Shown: one piece after another, positions 935-35,876 of the stretch
Layout: every line of letters starts with the position of its first letter
Position numbering within the stretch: position 1 is the first letter of the stretch
IMG/VR virus record: IMGVR_UViG_2537561977_000024
DNA: 37,316 bases
From: a virus
Lineage: Duplodnaviria; Heunggongvirae; Uroviricota; Caudoviricetes
Strand: one strand, 5' to 3'
Notes under the pieces: generated by a model
The model's input: only the letters and a program-made list of their open reading frames with translations
The model's database searches: none
Told to the model about the DNA's origin: nothing
Translations under genes and position numbers: made by a program

Positions 935-2620
935 GTGAATATAAACGTCGCCGAATTGTTAAATGGGAATTACATTCTGTTATTATTTGTGGTCCTCGCG
1001 CTTGGGCTATGTCTCGGAAAGTTACGACTTGGTTCGATCCAACTGGGTAATTCCATTGGCGTTTTAGTCGTATCGCTGTTATTAGGCCAACAACATTTCA
1101 GCATTAACACCGATGCGCTTAATCTTGGCTTTATGCTGTTTATTTTCTGCGTCGGGGTCGAAGCCGGACCGAACTTTTTTTCCATTTTTTTTCGCGATGG
1201 GAAAAATTACCTAATGTTAGCACTGGTGATGGTTGGCAGTGCGCTGGTGATCGCCTTAGGGTTAGGTAAGCTGTTTGGCTGGGATATTGGCCTGACGGCC
1301 GGTATGTTAGCAGGCTCTATGACGTCGACACCGGTTCTGGTCGGTGCTGGCGATACACTGCGTCATTCCGGCATGGAAAGCAGGCAGCTCTCACTGGCAC
1401 TGGATAATCTGAGCCTCGGGTATGCCTTAACCTATTTAATCGGTCTGGTGAGTTTGATTGTTGGTGCGCGTTACTTGCCGAAATTGCAGCATCAGGACTT
1501 ACAGACCAGCGCCCAGCAAATCGCCCGCGAACGTGGCCTGGACACTGATGCCAACCGTAAGGTTTATTTACCGGTGATCCGCGCCTATCGCGTCGGCCCG
1601 GAGCTGGTGGCCTGGACCGACGGCAAAAATCTGCGTGAACTGGGTATTTATCGACAAACCGGCTGCTACATTGAACGTATTCGACGTAACGGGATTCTGG
1701 CAAATCCAGACGGTGATGCCGTGCTACAAATGGGCGATGAAATAGCGTTGGTAGGCTATCCCGACGCCCATGCCCGACTCGATCCCAGCTTCCGTAACGG
1801 TAAAGAAGTTTTCGATCGTGACCTTCTCGACATGCGTATCGTCACTGAAGAAGTGGTCGTTAAAAACCATAACGCTGTAGGTAAACGTCTCGCACAACTG
1901 AAGTTGACCGATCACGGTTGCTTCCTTAACCGCGTCATTCGTAGCCAGATTGAGATGCCGATAGATGACAACGTCGTGCTTAACAAAGGTGACGTTTTAC
2001 AAGTCAGCGGTGATGCCCGTCGCGTAAAAACCATCGCCGATCGCATCGGCTTTATCTCGATTCACAGCCAGGTCACTGACCTGCTGGCATTTTGCGCCTT
2101 CTTTGTTATTGGGCTGATGATCGGGATGATCACCTTCCAGTTCAGCACATTCAGTTTCGGCATGGGGAACGCTGCCGGGTTGTTATTCGCCGGAATTATG
2201 CTGGGCTTTATGCGTGCTAACCACCCGACCTTCGGTTACATTCCGCAAGGTGCATTAAGCATGGTGAAAGAGTTCGGCTTGATGGTGTTTATGGCAGGCG
2301 TTGGTCTGAGCGCCGGTAGCGGTATTAATAACGGCCTGGGCGCGATTGGCGGTCAGATGTTGATTGCCGGATTAATTGTCAGTCTTGTGCCCGTGGTTAT
2401 CTGTTTCTTGTTCGGTGCTTATGTATTGCGAATGAACCGCGCACTGTTGTTCGGCGCAATGATGGGCGCACGCACCTGCGCGCCGGCAATGGAGATCATC
2501 AGTGATACAGCTCGCAGTAACATCCCTGCGCTGGGCTATGCGGGCACCTACGCAATCGCCAACGTCCTGCTGACGCTGGCAGGGACAATCATCGTCATGG
2601 TATGGCCAGGATTAGGATAA
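935..2620 (+). CDS. ybjL: putative AAE-family transporter YbjL
   Basis: 561-aa ORF with two membrane domains flanking central soluble (TrkA-C-like) region; matches E. coli YbjL in length and N-terminus. Confidence 0.88.
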
Positions 2621-2732
2621 AACTGAAGTTGCCCTGAAAATGAAATTTTTTTGCACAACCGCAGAACTTTTCCGCAGGGCATCAGTCTTAATTAGTGCCA
2701 CTGCTTTTCTTTGATGTCCCCATTTTGTGGAG

Positions 2733-2776
2733 CCCATCAACCCCGCCATTTCGGTTCAAGGTTGATGGGTTTTTTG
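2733..2776 (+). terminator. hairpin plus T-run downstream of ybjL, probably the chromosomal side of the prophage junction
   Basis: 10-bp perfect stem cccatcaacc/ggttgatggg followed by ttttttgtt. Confidence 0.5.
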
Positions 2777-2855
2777 TTGCCTGAAATTTAAGCTGTTTAA
2801 AATCATGATGTTAGAAACACTGTTTTTTAACGATGGCGACAAAATGGCGGCAGCG

Positions 2856-3074
2856 TCAAAGAGAGAGCGCCACCTGTCCTGATTTCATTGGATGCGGCTG
2901 AACCGGATTTGACTCTTTTGGCGTTGCAATCGAACGAACAAAAGTTTCATGGGTAACAAAAGTATGGCTGCAGTTAATGTTCTGGCACTGGTTGTAACGC
3001 TCTTTGGTCAATGAAGATACCTGAAAACTGCTGCGAGTATGGGCGGCACTTCCACACAGTGGGCAAATCATCAT
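2856..3074 (-). CDS. ogr: Ogr-family zinc-finger late transcription activator
   Basis: CPLC...HxR...CxNxxC pattern like P2 Ogr / 186 B; start set at internal Met by comparison with the ~72-aa Ogr. Confidence 0.85.
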   Translation of the reverse strand: MMICPLCGSAAHTRSSFQVSSLTKERYNQCQNINCSHTFVTHETFVRSIATPKESNPVQPHPMKSGQVALSL

Positions 3075-3164
3075 TTTTCGAGTTCTCCCCATTTTTGCTA
3101 AATTCACAATAATGATACCGCATTATTCCATTTTGCAAACTTAAAAGTTCTCCATTGCGAAGAA

Positions 3165-4265
3165 TCATTCCATTTCGAAATCATCAATCCTCACTTCAAG
3201 CTCCAGACTGGTTGTAAAACCGTTATCGGGGCTGACGGTATGCGTCAGAGTCGTAATGGTCCATTCCGCATCATCTATCGGCTGTTTAAAGCCACTGACT
3301 TTCACTGGCATTTCCGTGTAGAGATCTGCCCGACCTTCAGCCAGTTGTAGCGAGAATGACGCAACGCCGCGTTGCAGGCGTTCCCACTGCATTTTCGCCG
3401 CCCGTTCGGCGTTGCTCCGGTTGGCATAGGTGCGATTAAGTACCAGCACGTTTTCATCTGTACCCACCAGGTAATCGCCCTGCTTCGCTTCCGGCTCTTT
3501 CTTCTGCTTCTTAGTCCTGCGCTTACGCTTCACCGTGGTGCTTTCATTCTTCGCGGGTTCGCGGGTATGCAACCAGCTGGCAATTACGCCCGTGTAGGCT
3601 CCGCGATCTGCCAGGGTAAAGCGGTGACTGTCGCCGTCCTTACGTGTGATAGTGATAACCGGTAGTGGTTTACCGCTGGCGCTTTTACTCTGTCCCTGCC
3701 GGATGAATAACAGATTGCCATTTTTCACCGACGCAATAGCACCGTACTGGCGCGCCAGCCGCATCAGAAAACTGCCGTCACTCTCATTGGTCTGGTCTAT
3801 ATGTTCCACGGGTTTATCTGACAGGTCTTTACCCAATGCCATCTTCAGTTTGTGCCGCACAGCTATTTCCTTCACCACTTCCCCGACGGTGGTCTTGTGC
3901 CACGACTTTTCACGGCGGGTATTCAGCGTTTCACGAAAATCAGCACTTCGCGCCCGGATAGTCAGGCGGTCCGGTGCGCCAGTGTGTTCAATCTCGTCCA
4001 CCGTGAATGCCCCTTTCGGGAAAAGCGGCTGCCCCTTCCAGCCCAGCGCCAGCGTAATAACCGCACCACGGCGCGGCAGCACGATTTTTCCGTCGGCGTC
4101 GTCCAGCTCCAGATCAAGCTGGTCCGCTTCAAAGCCCCGATTGTCCGTCAGCGTCAAACTCATCAGGCGGTTATCCAGCACAGTGGTGATATCCCTGCCC
4201 TCAATACTGATGCTGAATGCGGGAGTTTTGTTGCCTTTGTTAAGCAGTTCAGAGCTGAAATTCAT
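3165..4265 (-). CDS. D: P2 gpD-like tail protein
   Basis: 366-aa ORF in conserved position and order; length like P2 D. Confidence 0.85.
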   Translation of the reverse strand: MNFSSELLNKGNKTPAFSISIEGRDITTVLDNRLMSLTLTDNRGFEADQLDLELDDADGKIVLPRRGAVITLALGWKGQPLFPKGAFTVDEIEHTGAPDRLTIRARSADFRETLNTRREKSWHKTTVGEVVKEIAVRHKLKMALGKDLSDKPVEHIDQTNESDGSFLMRLARQYGAIASVKNGNLLFIRQGQSKSASGKPLPVITITRKDGDSHRFTLADRGAYTGVIASWLHTREPAKNESTTVKRKRRTKKQKKEPEAKQGDYLVGTDENVLVLNRTYANRSNAERAAKMQWERLQRGVASFSLQLAEGRADLYTEMPVKVSGFKQPIDDAEWTITTLTHTVSPDNGFTTSLELEVRIDDFEME

Positions 4266-21120: not shown

Positions 21121-21953
21121 TCAGCAATTGGTCAGAGTGTCAGCGGGGGCGTTACCGCCTGTTGCACGCTGGCGGTAGTCCTGGCGGCTGTCTTCATGAC
21201 TCAGCTTGTCCACCAGTTCGTTAAAGGCGGTTTGCTGTGCCTGCAGGGCAGTCTCCAGCTCAGACAGGCGTTCTTCCTGCTCAGACAGGGATTTTTCGGT
21301 GCGTGCGCTCAGATTCTGCTGCTCAGTGGCGACCAGCTCCACGGCCTTATGCACATCAGAGAACCGGGCGTCATCGGACTGCTCTTTTTGGTAAACAGCG
21401 CCGTGACGCGGGCAAACAGGGACGGTTTGTCGTCCTGGATTTCTTCCAGTTCGATCACCGTTTCCTCTGCAGCGGTAAAGAGATTGGCAGGATTCTGCTT
21501 GCGGTTTGCCAGCGGGTTATGGGCTGCACTGGCGCTGAATGTCAGCATTTCCGTACCCAGACTGGCAGGGTCATCAGTGGCAGCCAGGCCGACCAGGTAG
21601 GCTTTGCCCGTATCAGCGAACTTCGGGCTGACTTCCATAGAGGTGAATAATTTCTGGCCTTTTTTCACCAGTTCCACCAGGGACTCCGTTGGCTCAACGT
21701 CGGCATACAGCGCCATCTTGCCTGCCAGCGGACCTTCCGTGATTTCTTCAGCAAACAGCGCCGTCACCTTGCCGTAGCGGTTAAAGGTGCTGTCCGGCAG
21801 ATAAGACTTGATGTGCTCAAGGTTAATCAGCGCGGTATACACCGCCGGGTTGTAGCTGGCTGCCATCTGTTCCAGCCATTCACGCTGGATTTCGCGTCCG
21901 TCGGTGGTGGCACCTTCCACCCCGATGCGAAAACGCTTTGCTTTCACTGTCAT
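21121..21953 (-). pseudogene. O: capsid scaffold gene O interrupted by a single-base frameshift
   Basis: Two ORF pieces (21309..21953 and 21121..21354) in different frames; joining at the A5 run 21385-21389 restores a ~278-aa gpO-like protein. Confidence 0.75.
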
Positions 21954-23862: not shown

Positions 23863-24899
23863 TGGGAAAGAGTAAGAAGAACCGAGCTGCGGCGACGAAA
23901 CAGATCCAGCTTAAAAGTCAAACTACAGCCGAAGCATTCAGCTTCGGCGATCCCGTTCCTGTTCTGGACCGCCGTGAACTGCTGGACTATGTGGAATGCG
24001 TACAGATGGACCGTTGGTATGAGCCGCCCGTCAGCTTTGACGGACTGGCGCGCACCTTCCGCGCCGCCGTGCATCACAGTTCCCCGATTGCAGTAAAGTG
24101 CAACATTCTGACCAGTACCTATATCCCTCATCCGCTGCTCAGCCAGCAGGCTTTTTCGCGTTTTGTGCAGGACTATCTGGTATTTGGTAACGCCTACCTG
24201 GAGAAACGCACGAACCGATTCGGTGAAGTTATCGCCCTTGAGCCTGCCCTGGCAAAATACACCCGACGTGGATTAGACCTGGATACCTACTGGTTTGTGC
24301 AATACGGCATGACAACGCAACCGTATCAGTTCACGAAAGGCAGCATTTTTCACCTGATGGAACCGGATATCAACCAGGAGATCTACGGCCTGCCCGGTTA
24401 TCTTTCTGCCATTCCGTCAGCCCTGCTCAACGAGTCCGCCACGCTGTTCCGTCGAAAGTATTACATTAACGGCAGTCATGCAGGCTTCATCATGTACATG
24501 ACCGACGCCGCGCAGAACCAGGAGGATGTAAACAACCTCCGTAACGCGATGAAAAGCGCCAAAGGACCAGGTAACTTCCGCAATCTGTTTATGTACTCGC
24601 CTAACGGCAAAAAGGACGGACTTCAGATCATCCCATTGTCAGAAGTCGCGGCGAAGGATGAGTTTCTGAATATCAAAAATGTCAGCCGCGATGACATGAT
24701 GGCAGTGCACCGTGTGCCACCGCAAATGATGGGGATTATGCCGAATAATGTTGGGGGGTTTGGGGATGTGGAGAAGGCAAGCCGTGTATTCGTCCGAAAT
24801 GAGCTAATGCCACTACAAAAGCGATTACAGGAGATGAATGATTGGCTTGGCAAGGAGGCGATACGGTTTGATACCTACTCGCTAGATATAGCCCCATAA
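23859..24899 (+). CDS. Q: portal protein Q
   Basis: 346-aa ORF overlapping P stop; length like P2 gpQ. Confidence 0.9.
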   Translation: MMGKSKKNRAAATKQIQLKSQTTAEAFSFGDPVPVLDRRELLDYVECVQMDRWYEPPVSFDGLARTFRAAVHHSSPIAVKCNILTSTYIPHPLLSQQAFSRFVQDYLVFGNAYLEKRTNRFGEVIALEPALAKYTRRGLDLDTYWFVQYGMTTQPYQFTKGSIFHLMEPDINQEIYGLPGYLSAIPSALLNESATLFRRKYYINGSHAGFIMYMTDAAQNQEDVNNLRNAMKSAKGPGNFRNLFMYSPNGKKDGLQIIPLSEVAAKDEFLNIKNVSRDDMMAVHRVPPQMMGIMPNNVGGFGDVEKASRVFVRNELMPLQKRLQEMNDWLGKEAIRFDTYSLDIAP

Positions 24900-24903
24900 T
24901 AAG

Positions 24904-24930
24904 AAAAGCCACCGTTTGGTGGCTTTTCTT
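24904..24930. terminator. bidirectional hairpin terminator between Q and the cargo operon
   Basis: aaaagccacc-gttt-ggtggctttt between convergent genes. Confidence 0.6.
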
Positions 24931-24933
24931 CAT

Positions 24934-25674
24934 TTACTCAATAGGTTCAAACTCATCTTGAGGAATCAGCGTCGATTGACAGGCTTGGCTTAGTACCCCT
25001 GATAATTTACATAATAACCGATAGTTATGAGGAGCATCATCGCTAATCTTTTCGACCGTTAAAGTGATTGATTTTGGATCATCCAATAACATCTTCTTGA
25101 TGTCATTACTTAAATACCTAGGGCAGTAACCAACGATTTCAGCTGGTTTATCTGCACGAACGACAACAGCATCCCCATCGTATTCATTTTGAAGATCCAA
25201 GCAAAGACGCAAAATTTGCCCCGGTTTCAATTCAGATACACGAGCATTAGCTAAGCTATTCAAGTAACCAAGTCCATGTAAGAAGAAAAAATGCTCAAAG
25301 TTACCATCAGAATCAAAATCAATTTTTTTGAAAATCTGCAGCTGATCAGTGCTTCGTAAGCCTCCCGAGCGAGCAAGAATATCGATAGGATTTACCTTAT
25401 CTTCTTCAAATCCAAGCCATTTAATGAAACTCGGATACTCTGGACGTCTCGGTGATAAAAGGCGATTTTTAAAAAGAGGAAACAATTCTTCCGATACATA
25501 AGTTTCACGAACATCACTCATGCCGCTAAACTTTGTAAATTTAGAAGATTTAAGAGCACCTTTGGTATACCTGAAAACATACCCCGATTTGCGCTCTTGC
25601 AAGTTACCAACAACATGCCAGTCTCTGGTATCTGGTGCCTGCCATGCGACGTAAACGGAGTTTGTATTAGTCAT
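24934..25674 (-). CDS. HipS-like N-domain fused to C-terminal HIRAN-like domain
   Basis: N-terminal VGNL..FRY...LFPLFKNRLLSP resembles HipA N-subdomain; C-terminal LRLCLDLQNEYDGDAVVVRA...VGYCPRYLS..IKKMLL fits HIRAN consensus; start overlaps kinase stop (ATGA). Confidence 0.6.
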   Translation of the reverse strand: MTNTNSVYVAWQAPDTRDWHVVGNLQERKSGYVFRYTKGALKSSKFTKFSGMSDVRETYVSEELFPLFKNRLLSPRRPEYPSFIKWLGFEEDKVNPIDILARSGGLRSTDQLQIFKKIDFDSDGNFEHFFFLHGLGYLNSLANARVSELKPGQILRLCLDLQNEYDGDAVVVRADKPAEIVGYCPRYLSNDIKKMLLDDPKSITLTVEKISDDAPHNYRLLCKLSGVLSQACQSTLIPQDEFEPIE

Positions 25675-26585
25675 TCTAGTAACCTTCTGCGATTTTCCAT
25701 TACCATTAACGTTGCAAATCTACGTGCACTGTCGGATATACACGATGAAGGCACTTGGTTAAACACATCTGTAATGGAATCTTCTGTTAAAACGCTCAAC
25801 TTACCTAACCAATGGTCGCGAGCGGCAACTCTCCCTTCAACTGCATGTTGAAATGCTTCAACAGTCAGCAAGGGCTTTTTATCAGTTTTTGCTTTGAATA
25901 GCTCAGAGCGAGCTTTTCTTACAAAACATGGGATTTGTCGATTTTTATCTTTAGTATTAAGCCGTTCGTTACGCTCATCATCTAACATCTCCCTTCCTAA
26001 ACTAGCGGCATGATCGTATGTTGGACACAAAAACTGCTCACCAGTTTCATTGTTAAGCATGATTGCCCAATTTTCATGGTGGCGATCTTGATTACTCACA
26101 AGTGCATCGAGCATCAAATATCCACAAAATACATCTGCTGCATTTAGCCCGGTTAGATCATATACACTCGGAGGAGGCTTGATAGATTCCCTATCTAAAC
26201 AACCCAAGACCCTTGTGACAGTGTGTTCTCTGACCCTTACCGGCTTTTCCCCGGCTTGTAAAGGCCCAGGATAATCGAATGTCGAACTGTGAAGCACTTC
26301 ATTTCCCATTACCATCCGGAAACCAGATGGAATGATATTCTGAGTCACCACACCGAATCGACCATTGTATCGCGCCAAATCATAGCTAGCATGTGGAATG
26401 TTAAGCAAATGACATAACTCAGCAGCACACTTTTCAGACCAATGCTCGCCAGTACCTGGCCTAGAGTACTTAAACAACTGCAAATTTACAGTGTCATCGG
26501 AGAAATAGAACCAAAACTTCTCTTTGGTTCCTAACTGTTCAAGATCGTTAGCTACGGGGCTAAGCTCTACCAATTGGTATGGCAT
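25671..26585 (-). CDS. HipA-family Ser/Thr kinase core (HipT-like, lacks HipA N-subdomain)
   Basis: Gly-rich loop LGTKEKF at residues 18-24, catalytic VSNQDRHHENW (D167), PTYDHAAS (D191), with HipA-like spacing. Confidence 0.7.
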   Translation of the reverse strand: MPYQLVELSPVANDLEQLGTKEKFWFYFSDDTVNLQLFKYSRPGTGEHWSEKCAAELCHLLNIPHASYDLARYNGRFGVVTQNIIPSGFRMVMGNEVLHSSTFDYPGPLQAGEKPVRVREHTVTRVLGCLDRESIKPPPSVYDLTGLNAADVFCGYLMLDALVSNQDRHHENWAIMLNNETGEQFLCPTYDHAASLGREMLDDERNERLNTKDKNRQIPCFVRKARSELFKAKTDKKPLLTVEAFQHAVEGRVAARDHWLGKLSVLTEDSITDVFNQVPSSCISDSARRFATLMVMENRRRLLE

Positions 26586-27142: not shown

Positions 27143-27623
27143 ATGGCTACTACCAACTGTATTACTGTACTTACTGCTCGTGGTTTAACAGAGATTTTGA
27201 ACACAGGGGGAAGCCAAGCATGGAGACTTGACGCCAGCCATGCAGCTAAGCACGAATATTTAGTTTGTGTACAAAATTCGAGAAAGGACTGGGGATCACA
27301 AGAAGCAAAACATCATCATGCTTTTATGATCGGTCGAATCTCGGGAGTAAGCAGGGCTCCAGAAAACCCTAAACGCTGGATCATAAACATCAATTCTTAT
27401 GCTGAAATTGACATCCCAGGACAATGGGATGGCAATCGGAATCCCGTTTCTTATCGCAACCTCAAAGACATTGGCATTGAGGCTGACAAGTTGGAATTTA
27501 AAGCTCTTCCCAAATTAACCCCGACTAATTCGATTGTCGATCAAGCGGGTGATGAGTACGAAGAAGAAGAAGAAAATGTAGTTAAGCCGTTAACACTTCA
27601 GGAGGCAAAAGCAGGGCTAGCCC
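27143..27623 (+). CDS. hypothetical protein, 3' end replaced by IS insertion
   Basis: ORF after 550-bp AT-rich region; acidic DEYEEEEEN linker; reading frame runs into IS left end at 27624; original C-terminus continues after IS at 28927. Confidence 0.5.
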
Positions 27624-28917
27624 CTGAGGGATCCCCAGAAAATTTAGTAAACCATTATCATATTGGTATACCGTTGCTGTAGAACTTTCAGCCCTGCGTC
27701 AAGTGACAGTGTGTTTAGTATGAGTGGAGAATGTCGAATCACATTCTCCGCCAGTTTTAATAACGAGATGACTCGCCTGTGCTTCACTGTATTTGCCTGA
27801 TATTTATGATGTATCCCTTTGTTTTCCAGGCTGAAACCGCTTAACCACATAATGATACTGGCTAATGTTGCGATCAGACTCAATACCGTGACCCGCCCGG
27901 ATGAATGACTGGCACCAAACCGTAGTCCAAATCCCCAGCGAGGATTTTTTTCATCCCTGAAATTTTGCTCAATTTGCATTCTACGGCTGTATAATTTCAT
28001 TACCTGTTTTGGCGAGAACTCAGTACTGTTTGTGAAAATAAACCATGGTGATTTCCCGGCAGTACGAGCTTTAGCCGTCACCGATGGTCTGGTTGCTCTT
28101 TCCTTCGAGCGTTTAAATCTACGACCTTTAGGCTTACTTTTATAAAGATAAAAATGCCCTTCATGTTGTGCATTTTTATCTCGACCCAGCAGGCCTTCAC
28201 CTAAATAAATTGCTGTCGTTGATGCTTTTGTGCCTGAGTCCGACACCTTTTCCCAGCCATTACCAACATTGTAATAATGATTGCCCAGTACCCGGCAAAT
28301 ATAGGTCCAGCCACGGGAGCGGAGCTGTTGGAACCATCGCCCCTGAAAACCGGCATCTGTAATAACAATGACATCAGTCCCGGGGGAAAAGCACTCAGCA
28401 AGCGATTCCAGAAAACGCTCATGTACATCTGCATTCGCTGTCTGTGATGATGGAACGACACAACTCATCAACGGTAAAGAACGCCCGTCACATGCCAGGC
28501 TTGCCCGCAAAAGCTGAAAACGAGAGGCATGATAAGCACTCCAGTCAATGAGTATCACAACACGAGACATTCCCCGCGTAATCTTTTGGGTAATTCGCTG
28601 AAAAATGGTGGAAACCTCATTTTGCAAATGTCGATTCCCCAACAGTCGATCCACCCGCTTTATTTTGTTTTTAACTGATGCCGTACCGGTTAAATGACGC
28701 CCGATACTGGTAAGTGTGAGGGAAGCGCCATTTATTACAGCATTAGTTGCGTCAATCAGTGATTTTTGACGGTAAAGATGCAAAGGGGCCAGTATGTTGT
28801 TAAGGAAATTTTGGCATAATGAACGTGCAGGCATAGTGGTGATCTCCTTGAAATTGTTAGCACAATCAATTAGATCACATCTCACTATGCCTGTCTTGTT
28901 TTCTGGGGATTCCTCAG
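27624..28917. mobile_element. IS10-like insertion sequence (IS4 family)
   Basis: Terminal inverted repeats CTGAGGGATCCCCAGAAAA / CTGAGGAATCCCCAGAAAA; flanked by direct repeat GGCTAGCCC (27615-27623 and 28919-28927). Confidence 0.8.
27644..28834 (-). CDS. IS10-type DDE transposase
   Basis: Motifs KRVDRLLGNRHL, TDAGF, YSRRMQIEQNFRDEK align with IS10 transposase as recalled; start set at MPARS. Confidence 0.85.
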   Translation of the reverse strand: MPARSLCQNFLNNILAPLHLYRQKSLIDATNAVINGASLTLTSIGRHLTGTASVKNKIKRVDRLLGNRHLQNEVSTIFQRITQKITRGMSRVVILIDWSAYHASRFQLLRASLACDGRSLPLMSCVVPSSQTANADVHERFLESLAECFSPGTDVIVITDAGFQGRWFQQLRSRGWTYICRVLGNHYYNVGNGWEKVSDSGTKASTTAIYLGEGLLGRDKNAQHEGHFYLYKSKPKGRRFKRSKERATRPSVTAKARTAGKSPWFIFTNSTEFSPKQVMKLYSRRMQIEQNFRDEKNPRWGFGLRFGASHSSGRVTVLSLIATLASIIMWLSGFSLENKGIHHKYQANTVKHRRVISLLKLAENVIRHSPLILNTLSLDAGLKVLQQRYTNMIMVY

Positions 28918-29243
28918 GGGCTAGCCCTATACTTTGGTGTTAATGAAGAAAATATTCAAATAACTATACAAGGTTAAGGCTTTTAAACCGGCATAAGTGG
29001 CCATTACTTTTCGTTCGAAGTGGCGCTTCCGGTCTAACAAGCATCTAATAGGATTTTCGTATCTATCACAAATCCCAAAAGGTAATTTGCAGCCCATCAT
29101 ACGTAGCAAAACTAACGTTCGGTTAAATCTGAGCGGAAGTGAAAATAATGGTTACTGTATTTTACCCCATGACTAATGCCCCACTAAACTAGTTGTTCAA
29201 CGTTGCTGACGTCAGAAGCAAGTTCAGACGCCAGCAACGTTTC

Positions 29244-29477
29244 TTAATGCAGCCAGCTGTCGTCTTCCCACACCTTCTGCATAATTTTCATCACTTGTTT
29301 TCTTTCTTCGTCCAGTTGCAGTCCGGTCAGTTCCACACCATTAGAGCTACCTTTACGGATACGAATTACCGCTTTGGGATACAGGGGGCGCAGATTGCGG
29401 TAAAGCTCGGATTCAAGGGCGTCCAGGGTAGACTGGCTAATTTTCTGCTCTTTATCGATCATTATTTCAATGCGCAT
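29244..29477 (-). CDS. DinI-family protein (186 Tum C-domain-like)
   Basis: MRIEIMIDK...ALESEL...KIMQKVWEDDSWL parallels DinI; GAGGTGA SD before this Met; ORF track extends to 29549 without SD. Confidence 0.75.
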   Translation of the reverse strand: MRIEIMIDKEQKISQSTLDALESELYRNLRPLYPKAVIRIRKGSSNGVELTGLQLDEERKQVMKIMQKVWEDDSWLH

Positions 29478-29716
29478 AAAAGTCACCTCAACTGATGACA
29501 TCCATTGAGCGGCTGTATTCGTGGATTCTGATCTTTGCCATGAGTTCATCAGTCAATTCAGAAACCCACTGCAGGGCCAGCCCCTTCTCTTCATCACTAC
29601 ACTCACTAGCCGCTACAAGCTTAAGAAAAAATCAATGCGCTGGAGCTTCAAAGACTCCAAAAAATAGTCCTGCATTTTTCCTCCTATGACACCACAAGCA
29701 ACACTGTATGCATAAC

Positions 29717-29736
29717 CACTGTTTATATTTACAGTA
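29717..29736. promoter_or_regulatory. LexA box (SOS operator)
   Basis: CACTGTTTATATTTACAGTA, near-consensus CTGT-N8-ACAG, ~240 bp upstream of DinI-like gene. Confidence 0.65.
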
Positions 29737-29827
29737 TATAATAATCTTACTGATGTAAAACGTTTTTTACATTCATCAGCATGATATGCTTGGTATTATT
29801 AAGAGCACGAATTGTTAGCCCGCGGAA

Positions 29828-32242
29828 TTAATACAGGTTCCGCCACTTATCATCTTCCCGCAAACGCTGGTTCCGATAGAAGATACGCAGGCCTGCTCCT
29901 GACGGAATACTGCCGCCGCGAAGGAGTAAATCGACCTCTTTCTCGCTACCATCAAATCCTCTGGACTTCAGCTCATAGACGAGCTGCAGTCGCTGATGGT
30001 CTGTAATTCGCTGTTTGTAGTCTTTACGCCGTTTCGGTTTAACCAGGCGTAACCTTGCTGCCAGTTCCCGGCGCTCTTTTTTGCTCATACTGTGCAGGTA
30101 ATCGTGCAACTCATTGTCATCCATGCGAGTAATGTCCGTTCTAGTGTCCCCATCAGCTGATTTATCTTTCTCCTGTTGGTTCAAATTTTCAGCAAGGGGA
30201 CAGTTATTGCCACGAGTCCAAGGGGCGCAAGCGCCCTGGTCGGCTGCCGCCTCCTGAACGTCAACGGCTTTACGAACCATTTTCCACTTCACTGCATGAG
30301 TGCAGATCTTGCCCTCTGCAATAGGTGACCAGATGCCATAAATACGAATGCCGTGATCGCCATAGGCGGTCGGCTCTTCGTTGATTTCATAAGCGGTTCT
30401 GATGAGGTGATATTTACGGGGAACCAGTACGCCGCCCTGCTTCATGATGTAGGTGGCAAAACAACCAGCATCAGCAGCAGCCAGGATGGCATCAAGGCGC
30501 GGGTTATCCAGTACCGGCGCACCTGCTTTTTTGTCCCCCTGTTGCCTTGCCGCCTGACCAGCCAGCAATCGCAGTTCACGGTAAGCCTGACGCCCCGGAA
30601 TGCCAAAGAAGCGGAATTGCTGAACACGATGCAAAGACGCCCAGGCGTTCACGTATTCAGCGTTATCACGCAGAGATTTACCCGTTTCCTTGCTGATCTC
30701 GCCAGCCAGACCACGCCCGTCAATGTTCTTACTGATGTATTTCGCTATGTAGCTTGTCGGCGTTCCTTTGCGCGGGTTAATCAGCTCAGACTTAAAGCGC
30801 GGCCCCGTGTTATTGCCCAGCTCCTCGCGGTCTTCACGGATAGCAAACTTACGCAACAATGCAGTAATGGCGCGGCGGTCTTTTTTGCGCATGAAACACA
30901 ACAGGTGCCAGTGAACTGTGCCGTCGTGATGCGGCTCAGCCACCCGCACGCCATACCAGCGCAACCCGGCTTTGTGCATCGCCTTACGAAATGCAGCAAA
31001 CATACCGACCAGATAATCGCTGCTTTGTCTTACCGTCGCATTTGTCCAGGTCGGGTTGGGCCTGCCGTTATTTAGCGTGGAATGGAAACGTGACGGACAG
31101 GTGATGGTGTAGAAAACGGCGCAGTCACCGCGCATTTCCGCGATAAGCTCCAGACCTTTAACACAGGCCATCATCTCATTGCGGCGATGCGCAGGGTTGC
31201 TGCTGCTGGCGTTTACCACATCCTCCATGTCCAGCGTGTCGCCGTCTTCGTTCACCAGTTCATGAGAACGGAAAAACTCCAGCGACTTACGGCGCTGCTC
31301 ACGTTTATGCAACACGGCTTCATAGCTGACATAGGGAGATGCTTTTTTGCTGACAAGGCAGACAGCACGCAACTGCTCTTCCCGCCATTCGCAACGCATC
31401 TTCCATAATTTCCGATACCACCAGTCGGCGCACAACATACGCGCCAGCGAACCCGGAATGAGTTCATAGGGCACGGGTTTACGGCGGTTTCTTTTCCGAC
31501 GGAGTTGCTCAAACGCAGGCGGGATTACATCCAGACGCAGGGTTTCCGCTGCCACCCTTTCCCATGTATTGCGGATTTCTTCTGGCTTAACGTCATCGGT
31601 GGCATACAAATCGCCACAAGCGGCATCAAGGCACATACTCATATGCGCAGCTACCAGGGTGGACAGGCGTTTCACCTGATCCTGACTCATTTCAGGCAGG
31701 ATCAGCAGGCCGTCCAGCCCTTCATGGCTTGCCATAAAGCGAAAAGATGCAGATAGCTGACTGTCGCGTACATGCTCCAGTCGTTCCAGACATGGCTTAA
31801 TCGTCTCACGTAAATAGCGGGAATAAGCCTTTGGCCTGCCAAGGCTGCTGAAGTATTCAATACGTTGCATCAGCGGCTTGCTGATATGGGAAGGCTGGGC
31901 GTTGACGTCCGCCAGAATGACCATATCCGGATTAAAACGCTGCTGCTCATGCACCAGCTTTGCCCGACTAATGAGCTTATCCTGTTCCATTTCGCGCTGG
32001 ACAGGATCACGGGATTCATTAAAGAAATAACGCTCCCAGACCTGATCACTCAGCGCCTCACGGCGCAGCTGTTCCTGCTCGTTATCGGCAGCGTACAGAG
32101 TGATCAGGTTTGAAAGCGTAGAAACCGGCGCAACTTCCACCGGGTCCAGATAAGGGTTAATGGCCTTTTTCGGGCTGTTCCATGAGAACGATGCGGCAGC
32201 TTCGTTAAAGCCGCAGCAGTTGTTCATATCGGCATGACTCAT
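29828..32242 (-). CDS. A: rolling-circle replication initiator A
   Basis: 804-aa ORF in position of P2/186 gene A; start coupled to dam stop. Confidence 0.88.
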
Positions 32243-33096
32243 GCACGTACTCCGTACACGGCAGAACTATCCACGCCACGCGAATAATCAAATCCCACCC
32301 AGCAGCGCGGCCCGGAAACAGCAATGATTTCTGTTGCTGATTTACCCTCGCCAGCTGCCACACCGATGCTGCGTTTTGCCTTGATGTAGTGGTGAGTAAA
32401 ATTGCGATACAGCGAACGGATCAGGGATGTGTCACTGTTAGAAACAATGACCGGATGTCCTTCTGATGACCGATGTTCAAGAACAGATGCCAGGTGATAC
32501 TGGTCATCTTCAGTGAAGCCGTCAGTGTGATAGCCGGAAAACGTACCGTCATACGGCGGATCGCAATACACCACATCCCCCGCCTTCAACATCGCCAGCG
32601 TTTCATCAAAGCTGGCGCAGATAAACGTTGCTCGCTGGGCCTTTTCTGCAAATGCGCGAATTTCTTTTTCAGGGAAATACGGATTTTTATAATTACCGTA
32701 GGGAATGTTGAAATGCCCGCTCTTGTTATAGCGACATAAACCACGGTAACCGTGACGATTGAGATACAGGAAATATACCGCTTTCATGAAATCAGTAATT
32801 TCAGTGGAGTAATTAAACTCCTGCCTTATGTTGTAATAAGCCACCTCCCTGTTTGCGATCTCAAATAAAACTCTGGCGCGAGATATAAACGATTCACAAT
32901 CAGCGGCAACCTTTTTATAGAGGTTGATTAAATCAGGATTAATATCCGCAACCAGATAGCTGGGGTAATCCGTCTCCATCATCACAGCACAGGAACCCGC
33001 GAAAGGTTCAACCAGTCGCGGGCCAGCAGGAAGGTGTTTTTTCAGTTCGGACATAATGGCGGTTTTATTTCCCGCCCATTTCAGGATAGTGCTCAT
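32239..33096 (-). CDS. dam: Dam-like N6-adenine DNA methyltransferase
   Basis: LKWAGNK N-terminus, FAGS, DPPY motifs align with E. coli Dam; start set at [11 protein letters not shown]. Confidence 0.85.
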
Positions 33097-33320
33097 ACAG
33101 CACCTCCGTTGTAATGTTTGCCTTTCAGCTCTGCGATTTCCTGGCAGGTAATGCAAAGCTGCACTCCCGGAATGGCGCGGCGTCGTGCTGGCGGAATTGG
33201 CGCTTCACATTCAATACAAAGCACGCGAGACACGCCCGGTGTTTTGGCACGGGCAGCACGAATATGGCGCTGGCGTTCTTCTTCAACGCGCTGCTGTACG
33301 AGATCCATTGCATCAGCCAT
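33093..33320 (-). CDS. TraR/DksA-family C4 zinc-finger protein
   Basis: CIECEAPIP...CITCQ four-Cys pattern in 75-aa ORF. Confidence 0.7.
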   Translation of the reverse strand: MADAMDLVQQRVEEERQRHIRAARAKTPGVSRVLCIECEAPIPPARRRAIPGVQLCITCQEIAELKGKHYNGGAV

Positions 33321-33559
33321 TAGTGGATCTCCTGCGCTTCGTTCTGGATTGCTTCAGCAGTTACACGCAGTAGTTCTGCCGCTTCGACGTGGTTTAGCTG
33401 GCGGGATGTGATATGACACGCCAGGCTATCAAGGCGAGCTGCCATTGCTTCTGCCCTTGCCCGGCGTTCTTCCAGACGAGCCTCTGTCAGTAAAATATTA
33501 AGCCCTACGTCATCCGGTCCGGTTTTAGTCGTGAGGGTTTCAATATTACGCATAATCAA
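33320..33559 (-). CDS. hypothetical early-operon protein
   Basis: 79-aa ORF, stop overlaps next start (TAATG). Confidence 0.45.
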   Translation of the reverse strand: MIMRNIETLTTKTGPDDVGLNILLTEARLEERRARAEAMAARLDSLACHITSRQLNHVEAAELLRVTAEAIQNEAQEIH

Positions 33560-33620
33560 TTCTCCTGAATTTAGATAAAGGGATGCCCGGCGGGTTTACG
33601 CCATTAATTTCATTAGTTGG

Positions 33621-33962
33621 TTAATTCGGCATGGTTAGCCGTCTGGGAAATAAGCTCACCACTGCACGAAAATGATTCATTGCTTTAATCAGCTCCCGCT
33701 TTTCGTCAGTGGTCAGCTCATTAATGCTGATGCTATGACGTTCAGCTGGAATTTTTGCCATAAAGAATATGGCAGCCAGTGCCCGTTTATTTTGTTCATT
33801 ATTGATATCCCGTGGATCACGCATATCTTTAATAAACCGCTCAAGCTCTGACTCAATATTCAGGCCAAAAACTTTCGCCCTTAACTCCGCAATGTGATTA
33901 AGTCCATTCAGGCGTTCACCGGGGCTTAATGGAACAGTTGCTGCAGCGCCATTAATTGCCAT
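33621..33962 (-). CDS. hypothetical early-operon protein
   Basis: 113-aa ORF in early operon. Confidence 0.45.
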   Translation of the reverse strand: MAINGAAATVPLSPGERLNGLNHIAELRAKVFGLNIESELERFIKDMRDPRDINNEQNKRALAAIFFMAKIPAERHSISINELTTDEKRELIKAMNHFRAVVSLFPRRLTMPN

Positions 33963-33984
33963 ACTTCATATCCCCCAAACGCAG

Positions 33985-34209
33985 CTATCGTTCTTTGTTC
34001 TTACGGTAACGCTCAAGAGGAGATACATTTTTTCGTATCGTCTCTTTAACCTGCTCTCCCCGTAAAAACGTCCCATCCTTTAACGTGAAAAAGTAACTGC
34101 CATCGCCCGACAATGACGGATAGCAACAGAGCAAATCATCTTCAGGTACTGAATAACTCTCCCCTCTGTAACGAAACTGATAAACCACTTCACTTTCTGC
34201 CGCATACAT
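33985..34209 (-). CDS. hypothetical small early protein (fil/dhr position)
   Basis: 74-aa ORF; overlaps alternative-frame ORF 34080..34409, so assignment uncertain. Confidence 0.3.
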   Translation of the reverse strand: MYAAESEVVYQFRYRGESYSVPEDDLLCCYPSLSGDGSYFFTLKDGTFLRGEQVKETIRKNVSPLERYRKNKER

Positions 34210-34383
34210 TTGGACTTTCTCCGTTTCCTCGTGGTCAATTCAGACAGCAATTCATCTTGTGAATGACATGGATGCCAGCGTTTTCCATCCTCACCCGTGA
34301 TCCAGCCGTGACCGTAGTGCATTGCCGGACTTTGTTTTACCAGCAGCGATGCAAATGATGGTTCTTTCGTAAGCATAAGCACC

Positions 34384-34902
34384 TCACAGCAAACCGAATG
34401 AAGCACCAAGACCAGTCATGGTATCAACTGCACTCGCCATCGCAGGATTAGCCTGTAAACGGGCCTGCAATGAAACAGCAGCCAGCGCCATCAGTCGTGT
34501 AACAGAGTTAATGCTGCTGATCGCATCACGACGGCCTGCACTGGTTTTTACATCGCCAGAAACCGCACCTGCCGCGACACGTCCTATCTCTGCAGTTGCA
34601 CTCATGACGTAATGCGGCAGTTTCTCTTTTGCTACCTCATTAATCGGTACACATGGCAGGCAGTGAATCTGTGCCAGAAAACCATCTACCAGCGTTGAAT
34701 CTTCAGTCAGATCGGTAAGCAACCAAATTTCTGGTGCGGTTAATAAATGAGGTTGAGCTGGGTTCAGTTTGTTCCGCAGAATCTGCACATTCATGCCTGC
34801 ACGTTCTGCCAGTTGCACCAGATTGTGGCGCAGTGCGAATGCACGACAGGCTTCATCAAAATGTGGATGTTTGGAAACTTGGTAATCAAACATGGTTTTC
34901 AA
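34384..34902 (-). CDS. cII: 186 CII-like lysogeny establishment activator
   Basis: 172-aa ORF with [24 protein letters not shown], second gene of rightward early operon. Confidence 0.6.
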
Positions 34903-34957
34903 CTCCGAACTTATCGCAAAATCGAACTCAGCGTCTTATTGCGAAAATAGACGTCTA

Positions 34958-35161
34958 TTAAGCAGACAAAGCATCAACAGTCAGAACAGCCAGGTTAATC
35001 ATTACCTTTTCACGTTTTTTGTCTTTACGAAGACGATGACGAGGTAGTCGGCCATCAGCCAACATGTCGTTAATCGTATCAATAGAAAGGCCAGTCAGTT
35101 CGCTATAACGTTCGATTGTGACATGTGGTGTATTCAGAGTAATTGAAATGTTAGGTGTCAT
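34958..35161 (-). CDS. apl: Apl/Cox-type excisionase-repressor
   Basis: 67-aa HTH protein, first gene divergent from cI. Confidence 0.6.
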
Positions 35162-35306
35162 AAGGCAACATTCCTTCTAGATATGGCTTGTGGCGAGCCG
35201 TTGTTTGTCGTGATTAGTAGTGAAGGCTCCAAAAGAACACTTCCGGTTCAACTTTAAGATCGCTTTTGGAATCTATCAACGAATTTTGGATTTCTTTGGA
35301 GGACTT

Positions 35307-35876
35307 GTGGATTTCAATAGCGGCGGTAAGAAAGCCATAGAACGTTTAGTTGAAGCATATGGGTTCGGTACCCGTCAGGCTCTCTGTGATCATTTAGGTG
35401 TTTCTAAGAGCACCATGGCAACGCGCTATATGCGTGATATTTTTCCAGCAGATTGGGTAATCCAGTGCGCCCTTGAAACGGGCACCTCGCTTAATTGGCT
35501 AACAACAGGGCATGGTTCAAAGCAAGCATCAGCAAATACAAATACTATGGAAGTTGCTAAATATGTATTATCTGATGGGGCCTTATGTGAAGACGGTTTT
35601 TATATTTTCGATAGGGAATTTCTACCGTCGGCATTCAAGAATATTTTTGCAATCACAGATAATAATTCTGAATTTATTTGTGATAAGGAATTTGATGATA
35701 TACGTGATGGTAAATGGGTAATAAGTATTGATGGCGAAATAACGATCCGTGACATTACTCGTTTACCCGGTGGAAGAATCTTCGTCGAGGGTGGAAACAG
35801 AGCCTTCGAATGCAAGATAGAAGACATTGAAATAATTGGTAAAATTATAAGTTTAACAGTCAAGTATGTTAAATAG
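35307..35876 (+). CDS. cI: 186 CI-like immunity repressor
   Basis: [10 protein letters not shown]...[15 protein letters not shown] matches 186 CI pattern; start ambiguous (ORF opens at GTG 35220; GTG 35307 with GGAGGA SD gives 186-like length). Confidence 0.7.

Follow-up and report, generated by a model that had tools for sequence, protein, structure and literature searches.

The CI immunity repressor of phage 186 is not cleavable by RecA. The tum gene of this phage is located after the replication gene A and beneath promoter p95, which is annotated with a −35 hexamer TTCACA, an 18-nt spacer, and a −10 hexamer TACTGT that constitutes the first half of a LexA box. The operon continues with orf97. 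The 186 Tum protein (146 aa) is a single fused polypeptide. As cited in PMC3121763, Shearwin et al. (1998) describe direct binding to CI and a block on operator binding for this fused protein only. Lemire et al. (2011) commented that 186 Tum looks like an antirepressor fused to DinI (PMC3121763). In Fels-2 and PSP3 the tum gene is split in two by a stop codon (PMC3121763; Bunny et al., 2002, as cited there), and the upstream gene of PSP3 encodes the antirepressor according to a personal communication reported in PMC3121763. The GenBank entry for PSP3 describes tumA as like the 5′ end of 186 tum and connected with UV induction of the prophage, and tumB as like dinI and the 3′ end of 186 tum, whereas the Fels-2 record refers its DinI-like gene to PSP3 TumB.

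The Gifsy prophages possess LexA-controlled operons, dinI-gfoA and dinI-gftA, which also pair a DinI homolog with a small antirepressor of a non-cleavable repressor. However, dinI is the first gene in these operons, so that the order is reversed, and the antirepressors and repressors belong to unrelated families (PMC3121763). Non-polar deletions of dinI in Gifsy prophages exert no clear effect on induction (PMC3121763). More recently, in-frame Δtum and lexA(Ind−) mutants of Escherichia coli HS carrying the DuoHS prophage were described (Ortiz de Ora et al., Nat Microbiol 2025; PMC12055606). Both mutants failed to lyse and produced no viral foci after treatment with mitomycin C (PMC12055606).

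The DNA under study, termed the window, is a 37,316-nucleotide stretch from a tailed phage record of the Caudoviricetes. The locus that is described here very probably is the SOS induction operon (tumA-tumB) of a P2-like prophage of the Fels-2/DuoHS type which is integrated between ybjL and rcdA. The split tum operon of Fels-2/PSP3/DuoHS-type P2-like prophages is an already known system, nothing in the locus is surprising for a specialist, and there is little new biology. The identities of the genes, their homology, the conservation of the LexA box, and the frameshift in tumA together with its rarity are established in the present analysis; the requirement for both tum and cleavable LexA in mitomycin C induction was shown by others in a 97% identical homolog. 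A miscall in one homopolymer is enough to disguise a familiar gene as a puzzling leader.

Organization of the Operon and Its Promoter

The operon region shares 88–96% identity with numerous P2-like phages and prophages from Escherichia, Klebsiella, and Salmonella. The features at the head of the operon are as follows:

29828..32242, minus strand, replication endonuclease gene A (804 aa; Pfam Phage_GPA, E = 1.8e-127)
29763..29768, minus strand, A6 run just 5′ of the −35 hexamer (A7 in an otherwise identical contig and in other relatives)
29754..29759, minus strand, putative −35 hexamer TTTACA of a p95-type promoter (read from the sequence and by analogy with the annotated 186 p95)
29717..29736, minus strand, LexA (SOS) box TACTGTAAATATAAACAGTG (sequence match and conservation)

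The operon starts ~70 nt past the gene A stop codon, as it does in 186, PSP3, and Fels-2, and the gene order matches that of the relatives whose loci were fetched. The position of tumA after the replication gene and beneath a promoter that is overlapped by a LexA box is common to 13 homologs. A reading of the locus made earlier from the sequence only had recognized it as a counterpart of the phage 186 SOS (p95-tum) module, which is correct; the module is located just downstream of gene A in a P2/186-like prophage, with a LexA box over the promoter. Fels-2 (STM2728/STM2726.1) and PSP3 (tumA/tumB) share with the window a small antirepressor gene and then a DinI-like gene after gene A, with a LexA box upstream. 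The resemblance to 186 comprises the position after gene A, the LexA box over a TACTGT −10 hexamer, a 186-type CI, and the homology of the N-terminal and C-terminal halves of Tum to TumA and TumB, respectively. In contrast, the two halves are joined in one polypeptide in 186, the CI proteins are only 33% identical, and the window has no homolog of orf97.

The LexA box contains a perfect CTGT-N8-ACAG core and agrees with the consensus TACTGTATATATATACAGTA at 17 of 20 positions. As noted in the sequence-only reading, this near-consensus box lies upstream of the minus-strand DinI-like gene. It is the single LexA-box-like site in the 37-kb window, where 0.27 sites are expected by chance (dinucleotide-preserving shuffles, one mismatch allowed). 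The box is invariant among close relatives of the window, and a box of the form TACTGT-N8-ACAGT is located 36–66 nt 5′ of the tumA start in every homolog examined, including PSP3, 186, and distant phages of the Cronobacter type and of Yersinia. In the window the distance to the tumA ATG is 59 nt.

The putative −10 hexamer TACTGT, as in 186 p95, is formed by the first six bases of the LexA box, and is separated from the −35 hexamer by 17 nt. A generic sigma-70 promoter scan found no promoter at the locus, because the putative −10 sequence matches at only 3 of 6 positions. The assignment of a p95-type promoter in the window is putative and is based on analogy with 186. Similarly, LexA binding and damage-inducible transcription are expected in the window by analogy with DuoHS, in which the box is identical and the lexA(Ind−) mutation blocks induction.

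A 62-Codon Gene in Place of the Supposed Leader

The interval between the LexA box and the DinI-like gene had been regarded as a ~240-bp leader that contains only tiny ORFs. The features in this interval are:

29680..29685, minus strand, Shine-Dalgarno sequence AGGAGG of tumA (read from the sequence)
29488..29675, minus strand, tumA/tum antirepressor gene (alignments to 813R9, Cartapus, REL606, 21AR0133, and the sister contig described below)
29626..29631, minus strand, T6 run at the frameshift site (T7 in relatives, run GATTTTTTTCTT)
29613..29675, minus strand, 20-codon ORF (tumA codons 1–18, two out-of-frame codons, and a stop codon)

The description is true of the letters of the window: the 20-codon ORF with its AGGAGG Shine-Dalgarno sequence is present as reported, and is followed by ~115 nt without a long ORF before the GAGGTGA motif. 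However, the interval is not a leader, but a 62-codon gene that is frameshifted at a T6 run which is T7 in relatives. The space is filled by an intact 62-aa ORF in all relatives examined, among them 813R9, Cartapus, REL606, 21AR0133, Fels-2, E. coli HS, SopEPhi, and Klebsiella and Yersinia phages. The gene is 188 nt in length in the window compared to 189 nt (62 aa) in the relatives, and its frame is broken after codon 18. The proposed small leader peptide is the truncated head of tumA.

Across the Enterobacterales, both the length and the sequence of the 62-aa protein are conserved, with 484 matches among clusters formed at 90% identity. A profile of the family yielded 88 matches among 1.84 billion representatives (50% identity), almost all of which are stand-alone proteins of 45–100 aa. 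Variation in the gene is concentrated at third codon positions: the numbers of variable sites at positions 1, 2, and 3 are 12, 8, and 32, respectively, and variable codons with synonymous changes only (24) outnumber those with an amino acid change (15). The conservation of the protein across the Enterobacterales and the weighting of variation toward the third position indicate that tumA is a real protein-coding gene under purifying selection.

These data bear on the possibility of a true leader, either untranslated or coding for a peptide, which regulates translation of the DinI-like gene, for example via the 20-aa peptide. The strong ribosome binding site of the 20-codon ORF and a weak hairpin over the tumB ribosome binding site could be viewed in this light, but the ORF is the head of a 62-aa gene that is conserved at the protein level across genera, the stop codon of the 20-aa ORF is not conserved elsewhere with T7 found in 33 of 34 loci, and the hairpin is no more stable than shuffled sequence (z = −0.66). 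The likelihood of a genuine leader is close to nil.

The TumA protein is acidic and an AlphaFold2 model predicts a confident two-helix hairpin (pLDDT 90.6). A Foldseek search of the PDB with this model returned no match at E ≤ 0.001, but only generic helical hairpins. RefSeq, PHROGs, and Pfam still list the 62-aa family under "hypothetical protein" or "unknown function." As the antirepressor family is unnamed in databases and the DinI-like neighbor draws the label "Tum" or "SOS modulator," annotators tend to credit the wrong gene.

Homology of TumA with 186 Tum

The comparisons below indicate that the 62-aa protein and the N-terminal, non-DinI half of 186 Tum are homologs, and that the protein groups with PSP3 TumA and Fels-2 STM2728. 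BLASTP produced no alignment between the 62-aa protein and 186 Tum. Smith-Waterman comparison of the two proteins gave an ungapped alignment of residues 6–41 with a score of 57, compared to 21.3 ± 3.9 for shuffled sequences, none of which reached 57 in 2,000 trials. The 62-aa protein is assigned to phrog_698 (7e-37), and residues 7–44 of 186 Tum matched this profile in the same register with an E value of 2.4e-5. Two further profiles, phrog_8554 and phrog_1993, were matched by both the 62-aa protein and 186 Tum. When the profile of the 62-aa family was searched against the 1.84 billion representatives, no fused Tum-like protein (~146 aa) was recovered at E ≤ 0.001. Thus, the relationship with 186 Tum is supported by the pairwise comparison and the PHROG matches, and not by this search.

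Fels-2 STM2728 shares 98.4% identity with the 62-aa query from 813R9. In contrast, PSP3 TumA (60 aa) belongs to another PHROG, phrog_1993, and displays weak pairwise similarity to the 62-aa protein (z = 2.8); the two are connected via 186 Tum and the shared profiles.

The DinI-Like Protein TumB

The second gene of the operon and the structure that follows it are:

29244..29477, minus strand, tumB, DinI-like gene (77 aa; Pfam PF06183)
29198..29241, minus strand, strong hairpin directly past the tumB stop codon, no U tract (−27.8 kcal/mol, z = −5.3)

The ORF of the DinI family spans 101 aa when counted from its first ATG at position 29549, in agreement with the earlier reading, and 77 aa from the methionine at 29477 that is preceded by a ribosome binding site, rather than the 78 aa that had been counted. 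The ribosome binding site GAGGTGA overlaps the tumA stop codon and the tumB ATG is 10 nt past that stop. The earlier identification of a DinI family gene with a good ribosome binding site was correct: TumB matched Pfam PF06183 (DinI) with an E value of 1.4e-22 and 80.2 bits against a cut-off of 24.2 bits over profile positions 1–63 of 63, as well as phrog_189 (2.9e-29). The expected relatedness to both Tum and DinI also emerged in alignments. TumB is 40% identical to residues 71–145 of 186 Tum (E = 1e-23) and aligned over its full length with the solved structure of E. coli DinI, 1GHH (E = 2.7e-6; residues 1–75 with 1–77), such that the C-terminal ...WEDDSW of TumB coincides with the acidic C-terminal helix of DinI (...WESADDW). 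The protein differs from that of DuoHS and REL606 at one residue. On these sequence criteria, TumB clearly is a member of the DinI family. It is distinguished from E. coli DinI in being phage-borne and in being encoded by the second gene of an antirepressor operon.

Genes of the tumA type also occur without a downstream DinI-like gene. Four examples were observed, with positions given in fetched-locus coordinates:

3651-3839, tumA-type gene in E. coli CM129856
3651-3839, tumA-type gene in E. coli CP076282
501-713, tumA-type gene in phage ESSI2_ev015
477-659, tumA-type gene in Yersinia phage vB_YenM_06.16-2

A LexA box is present 5′ of the gene at least in the two phages, ESSI2_ev015 and vB_YenM_06.16-2. 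The existence of tumA-type genes without the DinI-like gene implies that the DinI partner is dispensable for the architecture of the module.

The hairpin at 29198..29241 is located where 186 has its partial terminator t95a, and may function similarly by analogy. Separately, a hairpin over the tumA stop codon and the tumB ribosome binding site was flagged as terminator-like, but was dropped as a coupling element based on its z value of −0.66 against shuffled sequence.

Deletion of the tumA Homolog in DuoHS

The DuoHS prophage resembles that in the window in its integration site between rcdA and ybjL, gene order, and identical LexA box. The genes tum (ECHS_RS04495) and the DinI-like ECHS_RS04500 are paired as in the window, and the proteins are near-identical: TumA matches at 60 of 62 residues once the window gene is repaired, TumB matches at 76 of 77 residues, and CI is 91% identical. 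The two prophages differ in that DuoHS has T7 in tum where the window has T6, carries other cargo downstream of tumB, and is without the ISEc60 insertion that is present in the window.

The extent of the DuoHS deletion was traced with the published primers. Primers NHR24 and NHR28 (PMC12055606, Supplementary file 3) map to the ATG and TGA, respectively, of the 62-aa ORF in the HS genome. The Δtum deletion joins the ATG (24620) and TGA (24806-24808) of ECHS_RS04495, and leaves the DinI-like gene (24819-25052) and its ribosome binding site intact. Because the removal of exactly this ORF abolished induction while the DinI-like gene was intact, the antirepressor in the window is, by analogy with DuoHS, the product of the "leader" gene tumA, and the DinI-like gene alone would be insufficient.

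The sequence-only reading instead had considered the DinI-like ORF as the antirepressor, in an unusually compact form that inactivates CI. This proposal draws on the DinI-like nature of the C-terminal half of 186 Tum and on the placement of the gene under a LexA-controlled promoter. However, it conflicts with the loss of DuoHS induction on deletion of the upstream 62-aa ORF alone with the DinI-like gene and its ribosome binding site retained, with the antirepressor activity reported for the upstream gene of PSP3 (PMC3121763), and with the prophages and phages that keep tumA and the LexA box without a DinI gene. A compact DinI-like antirepressor is very improbable. The role falls instead to the 62-aa upstream gene, as both its homology with the N-terminal half of Tum and the DuoHS deletion (PMC12055606) indicate. 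Among the three options that had been put forward, decay of an N-terminal domain came nearest. Nevertheless, the domain is encoded by a gene of its own, as is the case in Fels-2 and PSP3 (PMC3121763), and this gene is short of one T in the window and intact in an otherwise identical contig.

The Missing T in tumA

The window is one T short of the run GATTTTTTTCTT, which shifts the frame after codon 18 and leads to a stop after 20 codons. Seven Ts are present in 33 of the 34 fetched loci with the site. Among 1,100 complete E. coli records, about 1,097 (~99.7%) have T7, compared to 2 (~0.2%) with T6. The only complete E. coli genome with T6 that was identified is that of strain ET734 in which PGAP annotates tumA as a frameshifted pseudogene. 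The ET734 locus also contains a frameshifted gene A within 150 bp (fetched locus 2026-3833), which points to homopolymer problems in the ET734 assembly as well.

The exact gene A protein of the window was found on one public contig, DAEAOT010000027.1 (GCA_018229165.1). In comparison with positions 28925-35742 of the window, this contig showed no mismatches in 6,820 bp; the differences are T7 instead of T6 in tumA, which is intact on the contig, and A7 instead of A6 just 5′ of the −35 hexamer. The contig ends at the IS element boundary, as might be expected if a strain carrying this insertion had been assembled from short reads. In comparison with the prophage of 21AR0133, which is 97–98% identical, the well-aligned regions contain three indels, all of them one-base homopolymer deletions in the window: the two in the T and A runs above and a change from T6 to T5 in gpO, described below. 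The runs that are shortened comprise 2 of 7 seven-base runs, 1 of 24 six-base runs, and none of 62 five-base runs. Deletion-only homopolymer differences that depend on run length and are not accompanied by substitutions are typical of miscalls in long-read or flow-chemistry sequencing.

Because an otherwise identical contig differs only at two 7-base homopolymers and has the intact gene, the missing T probably is an artifact of homopolymer assembly, with the limit that the sister contig may derive from a different isolate of the same clone and that homopolymers also are real mutation hotspots. The source assembly of the window appears to contain homopolymer errors.

It is conceivable, but doubtful, that the one-base deletion is real. 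In that event tumA would be a fresh pseudogene, SOS inducibility would be lost while an SOS-inducible DinI-like gene is kept, and the change would represent a step in the domestication or decay of the prophage. Homopolymers are natural hotspots for indels, the same T6 allele occurs as an annotated pseudogene in ET734, and other lesions are evident in the same prophage, namely an ISEc60 insertion ~316 bp downstream of tumB and a frameshift in the scaffold gene gpO. Against a real deletion, the comparison with the 6,820-bp identical contig revealed only two one-base shortenings of 7-mers and no substitutions, each of the three indels found in comparison with 21AR0133 is a deletion in a run of at least six bases and such deletions are commoner in longer runs, which is the signature of homopolymer under-calling, and the intact allele is found in about 99.7% of the E. 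coli copies. If the deletion were real, the lysogen is predicted to be SOS-blind and not to respond to DNA damage; if gpO also were broken, the prophage would be unable to build capsids.

The T7 tract alternatively might be a slippage-prone, phase-variable element in which T6 confers a heritable and reversible induction-off state with continued expression of the DinI-like gene. The strict conservation of T7 at the DNA level and the independent appearance of T6 in two prophage backgrounds, those of the window and ET734, are compatible with this proposal, under which both T6 alleles would be genuine. However, T7 encodes Phe-Phe in a conserved helix so that the protein explains the conservation, only about 0.2% of copies have T6 and their assemblies show other homopolymer frameshifts, and a seven-base run is short for efficient slippage. 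Phase variation at this site is most unlikely.

A change from T6 to T5 at about position 21385 divides the capsid scaffold gene gpO (window 21121-21953) into two ORFs, one of 214 aa and one of 77 aa. The protein is 277 aa in length in nearly all of the relatives that were fetched, with shorter calls in a few partly deleted prophages. The gpO frameshift involves the same kind of homopolymer shortening as tumA, so that it reflects either a fault in the assembly or a second loss-of-function mutation. Look-ups with the terminase and with the HipA-domain protein did not find the gpO-bearing contig of the sister assembly.

The CI Repressor and a Model for Induction

The repressor gene is located beyond gene A on the opposite strand:

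35307..35876, plus strand, 186-type CI immunity repressor (189 aa; similarity to 186 CI), presumed target of TumA

The protein is 33% identical to 186 CI over 175 residues (E = 8e-38), which upholds the earlier description of the immunity repressor as 186 CI-like, and is 91% identical to the CI protein of DuoHS. In the proposed model, the p95-type promoter (TTTACA, 17 nt, TACTGT) beneath the single LexA box would be silent until DNA damage triggers cleavage of LexA, whereupon the tumA-tumB transcript would be produced. By analogy with 186 Tum, TumA would bind the non-cleavable 186-type CI and prevent it from binding the operators. The release of CI from the operators would then allow the prophage to switch to lytic growth. 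TumB would be an accessory DinI-like modulator that is insufficient for induction. Both the binding of CI by a split TumA and the role of TumB are inferred.

In phages whose TumA proteins are 98–100% identical, the N-terminal domains of CI are 70–78% identical to that of the window, whereas the C-terminal domains are only 26–42% identical. As one TumA is associated with many CI variants that share mainly the DNA-binding domain, the pattern hints that this N-terminal domain may be the target of TumA. The sequences also suggest that cross-induction between prophages which share near-identical TumA proteins may be possible.

Neighboring Features in the Window

An ISEc60 element (IS4-like) with 30-nt terminal inverted repeats is located at 27613-28928, ~316 bp downstream of tumB. 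The element cuts the 3′ end of a plus-strand hypothetical gene that starts at 27143 and is intact in 21AR0133 (176 aa). An insertion of ISEc60 at this site was found in no complete E. coli genome of the collection. Positions 24934-26585 encode two proteins, one with a HipA domain (304 aa) and one with a HIRAN domain (246 aa), that correspond to the PADLOC candidate defense system PDC-M03A/B (E = 2e-122 and 7e-93, respectively). These genes are situated in a variable cargo region between the portal gene and tumB, and the same spot in relatives is occupied by retrons, SIR2, GmrSD, AAA-type, and other genes.
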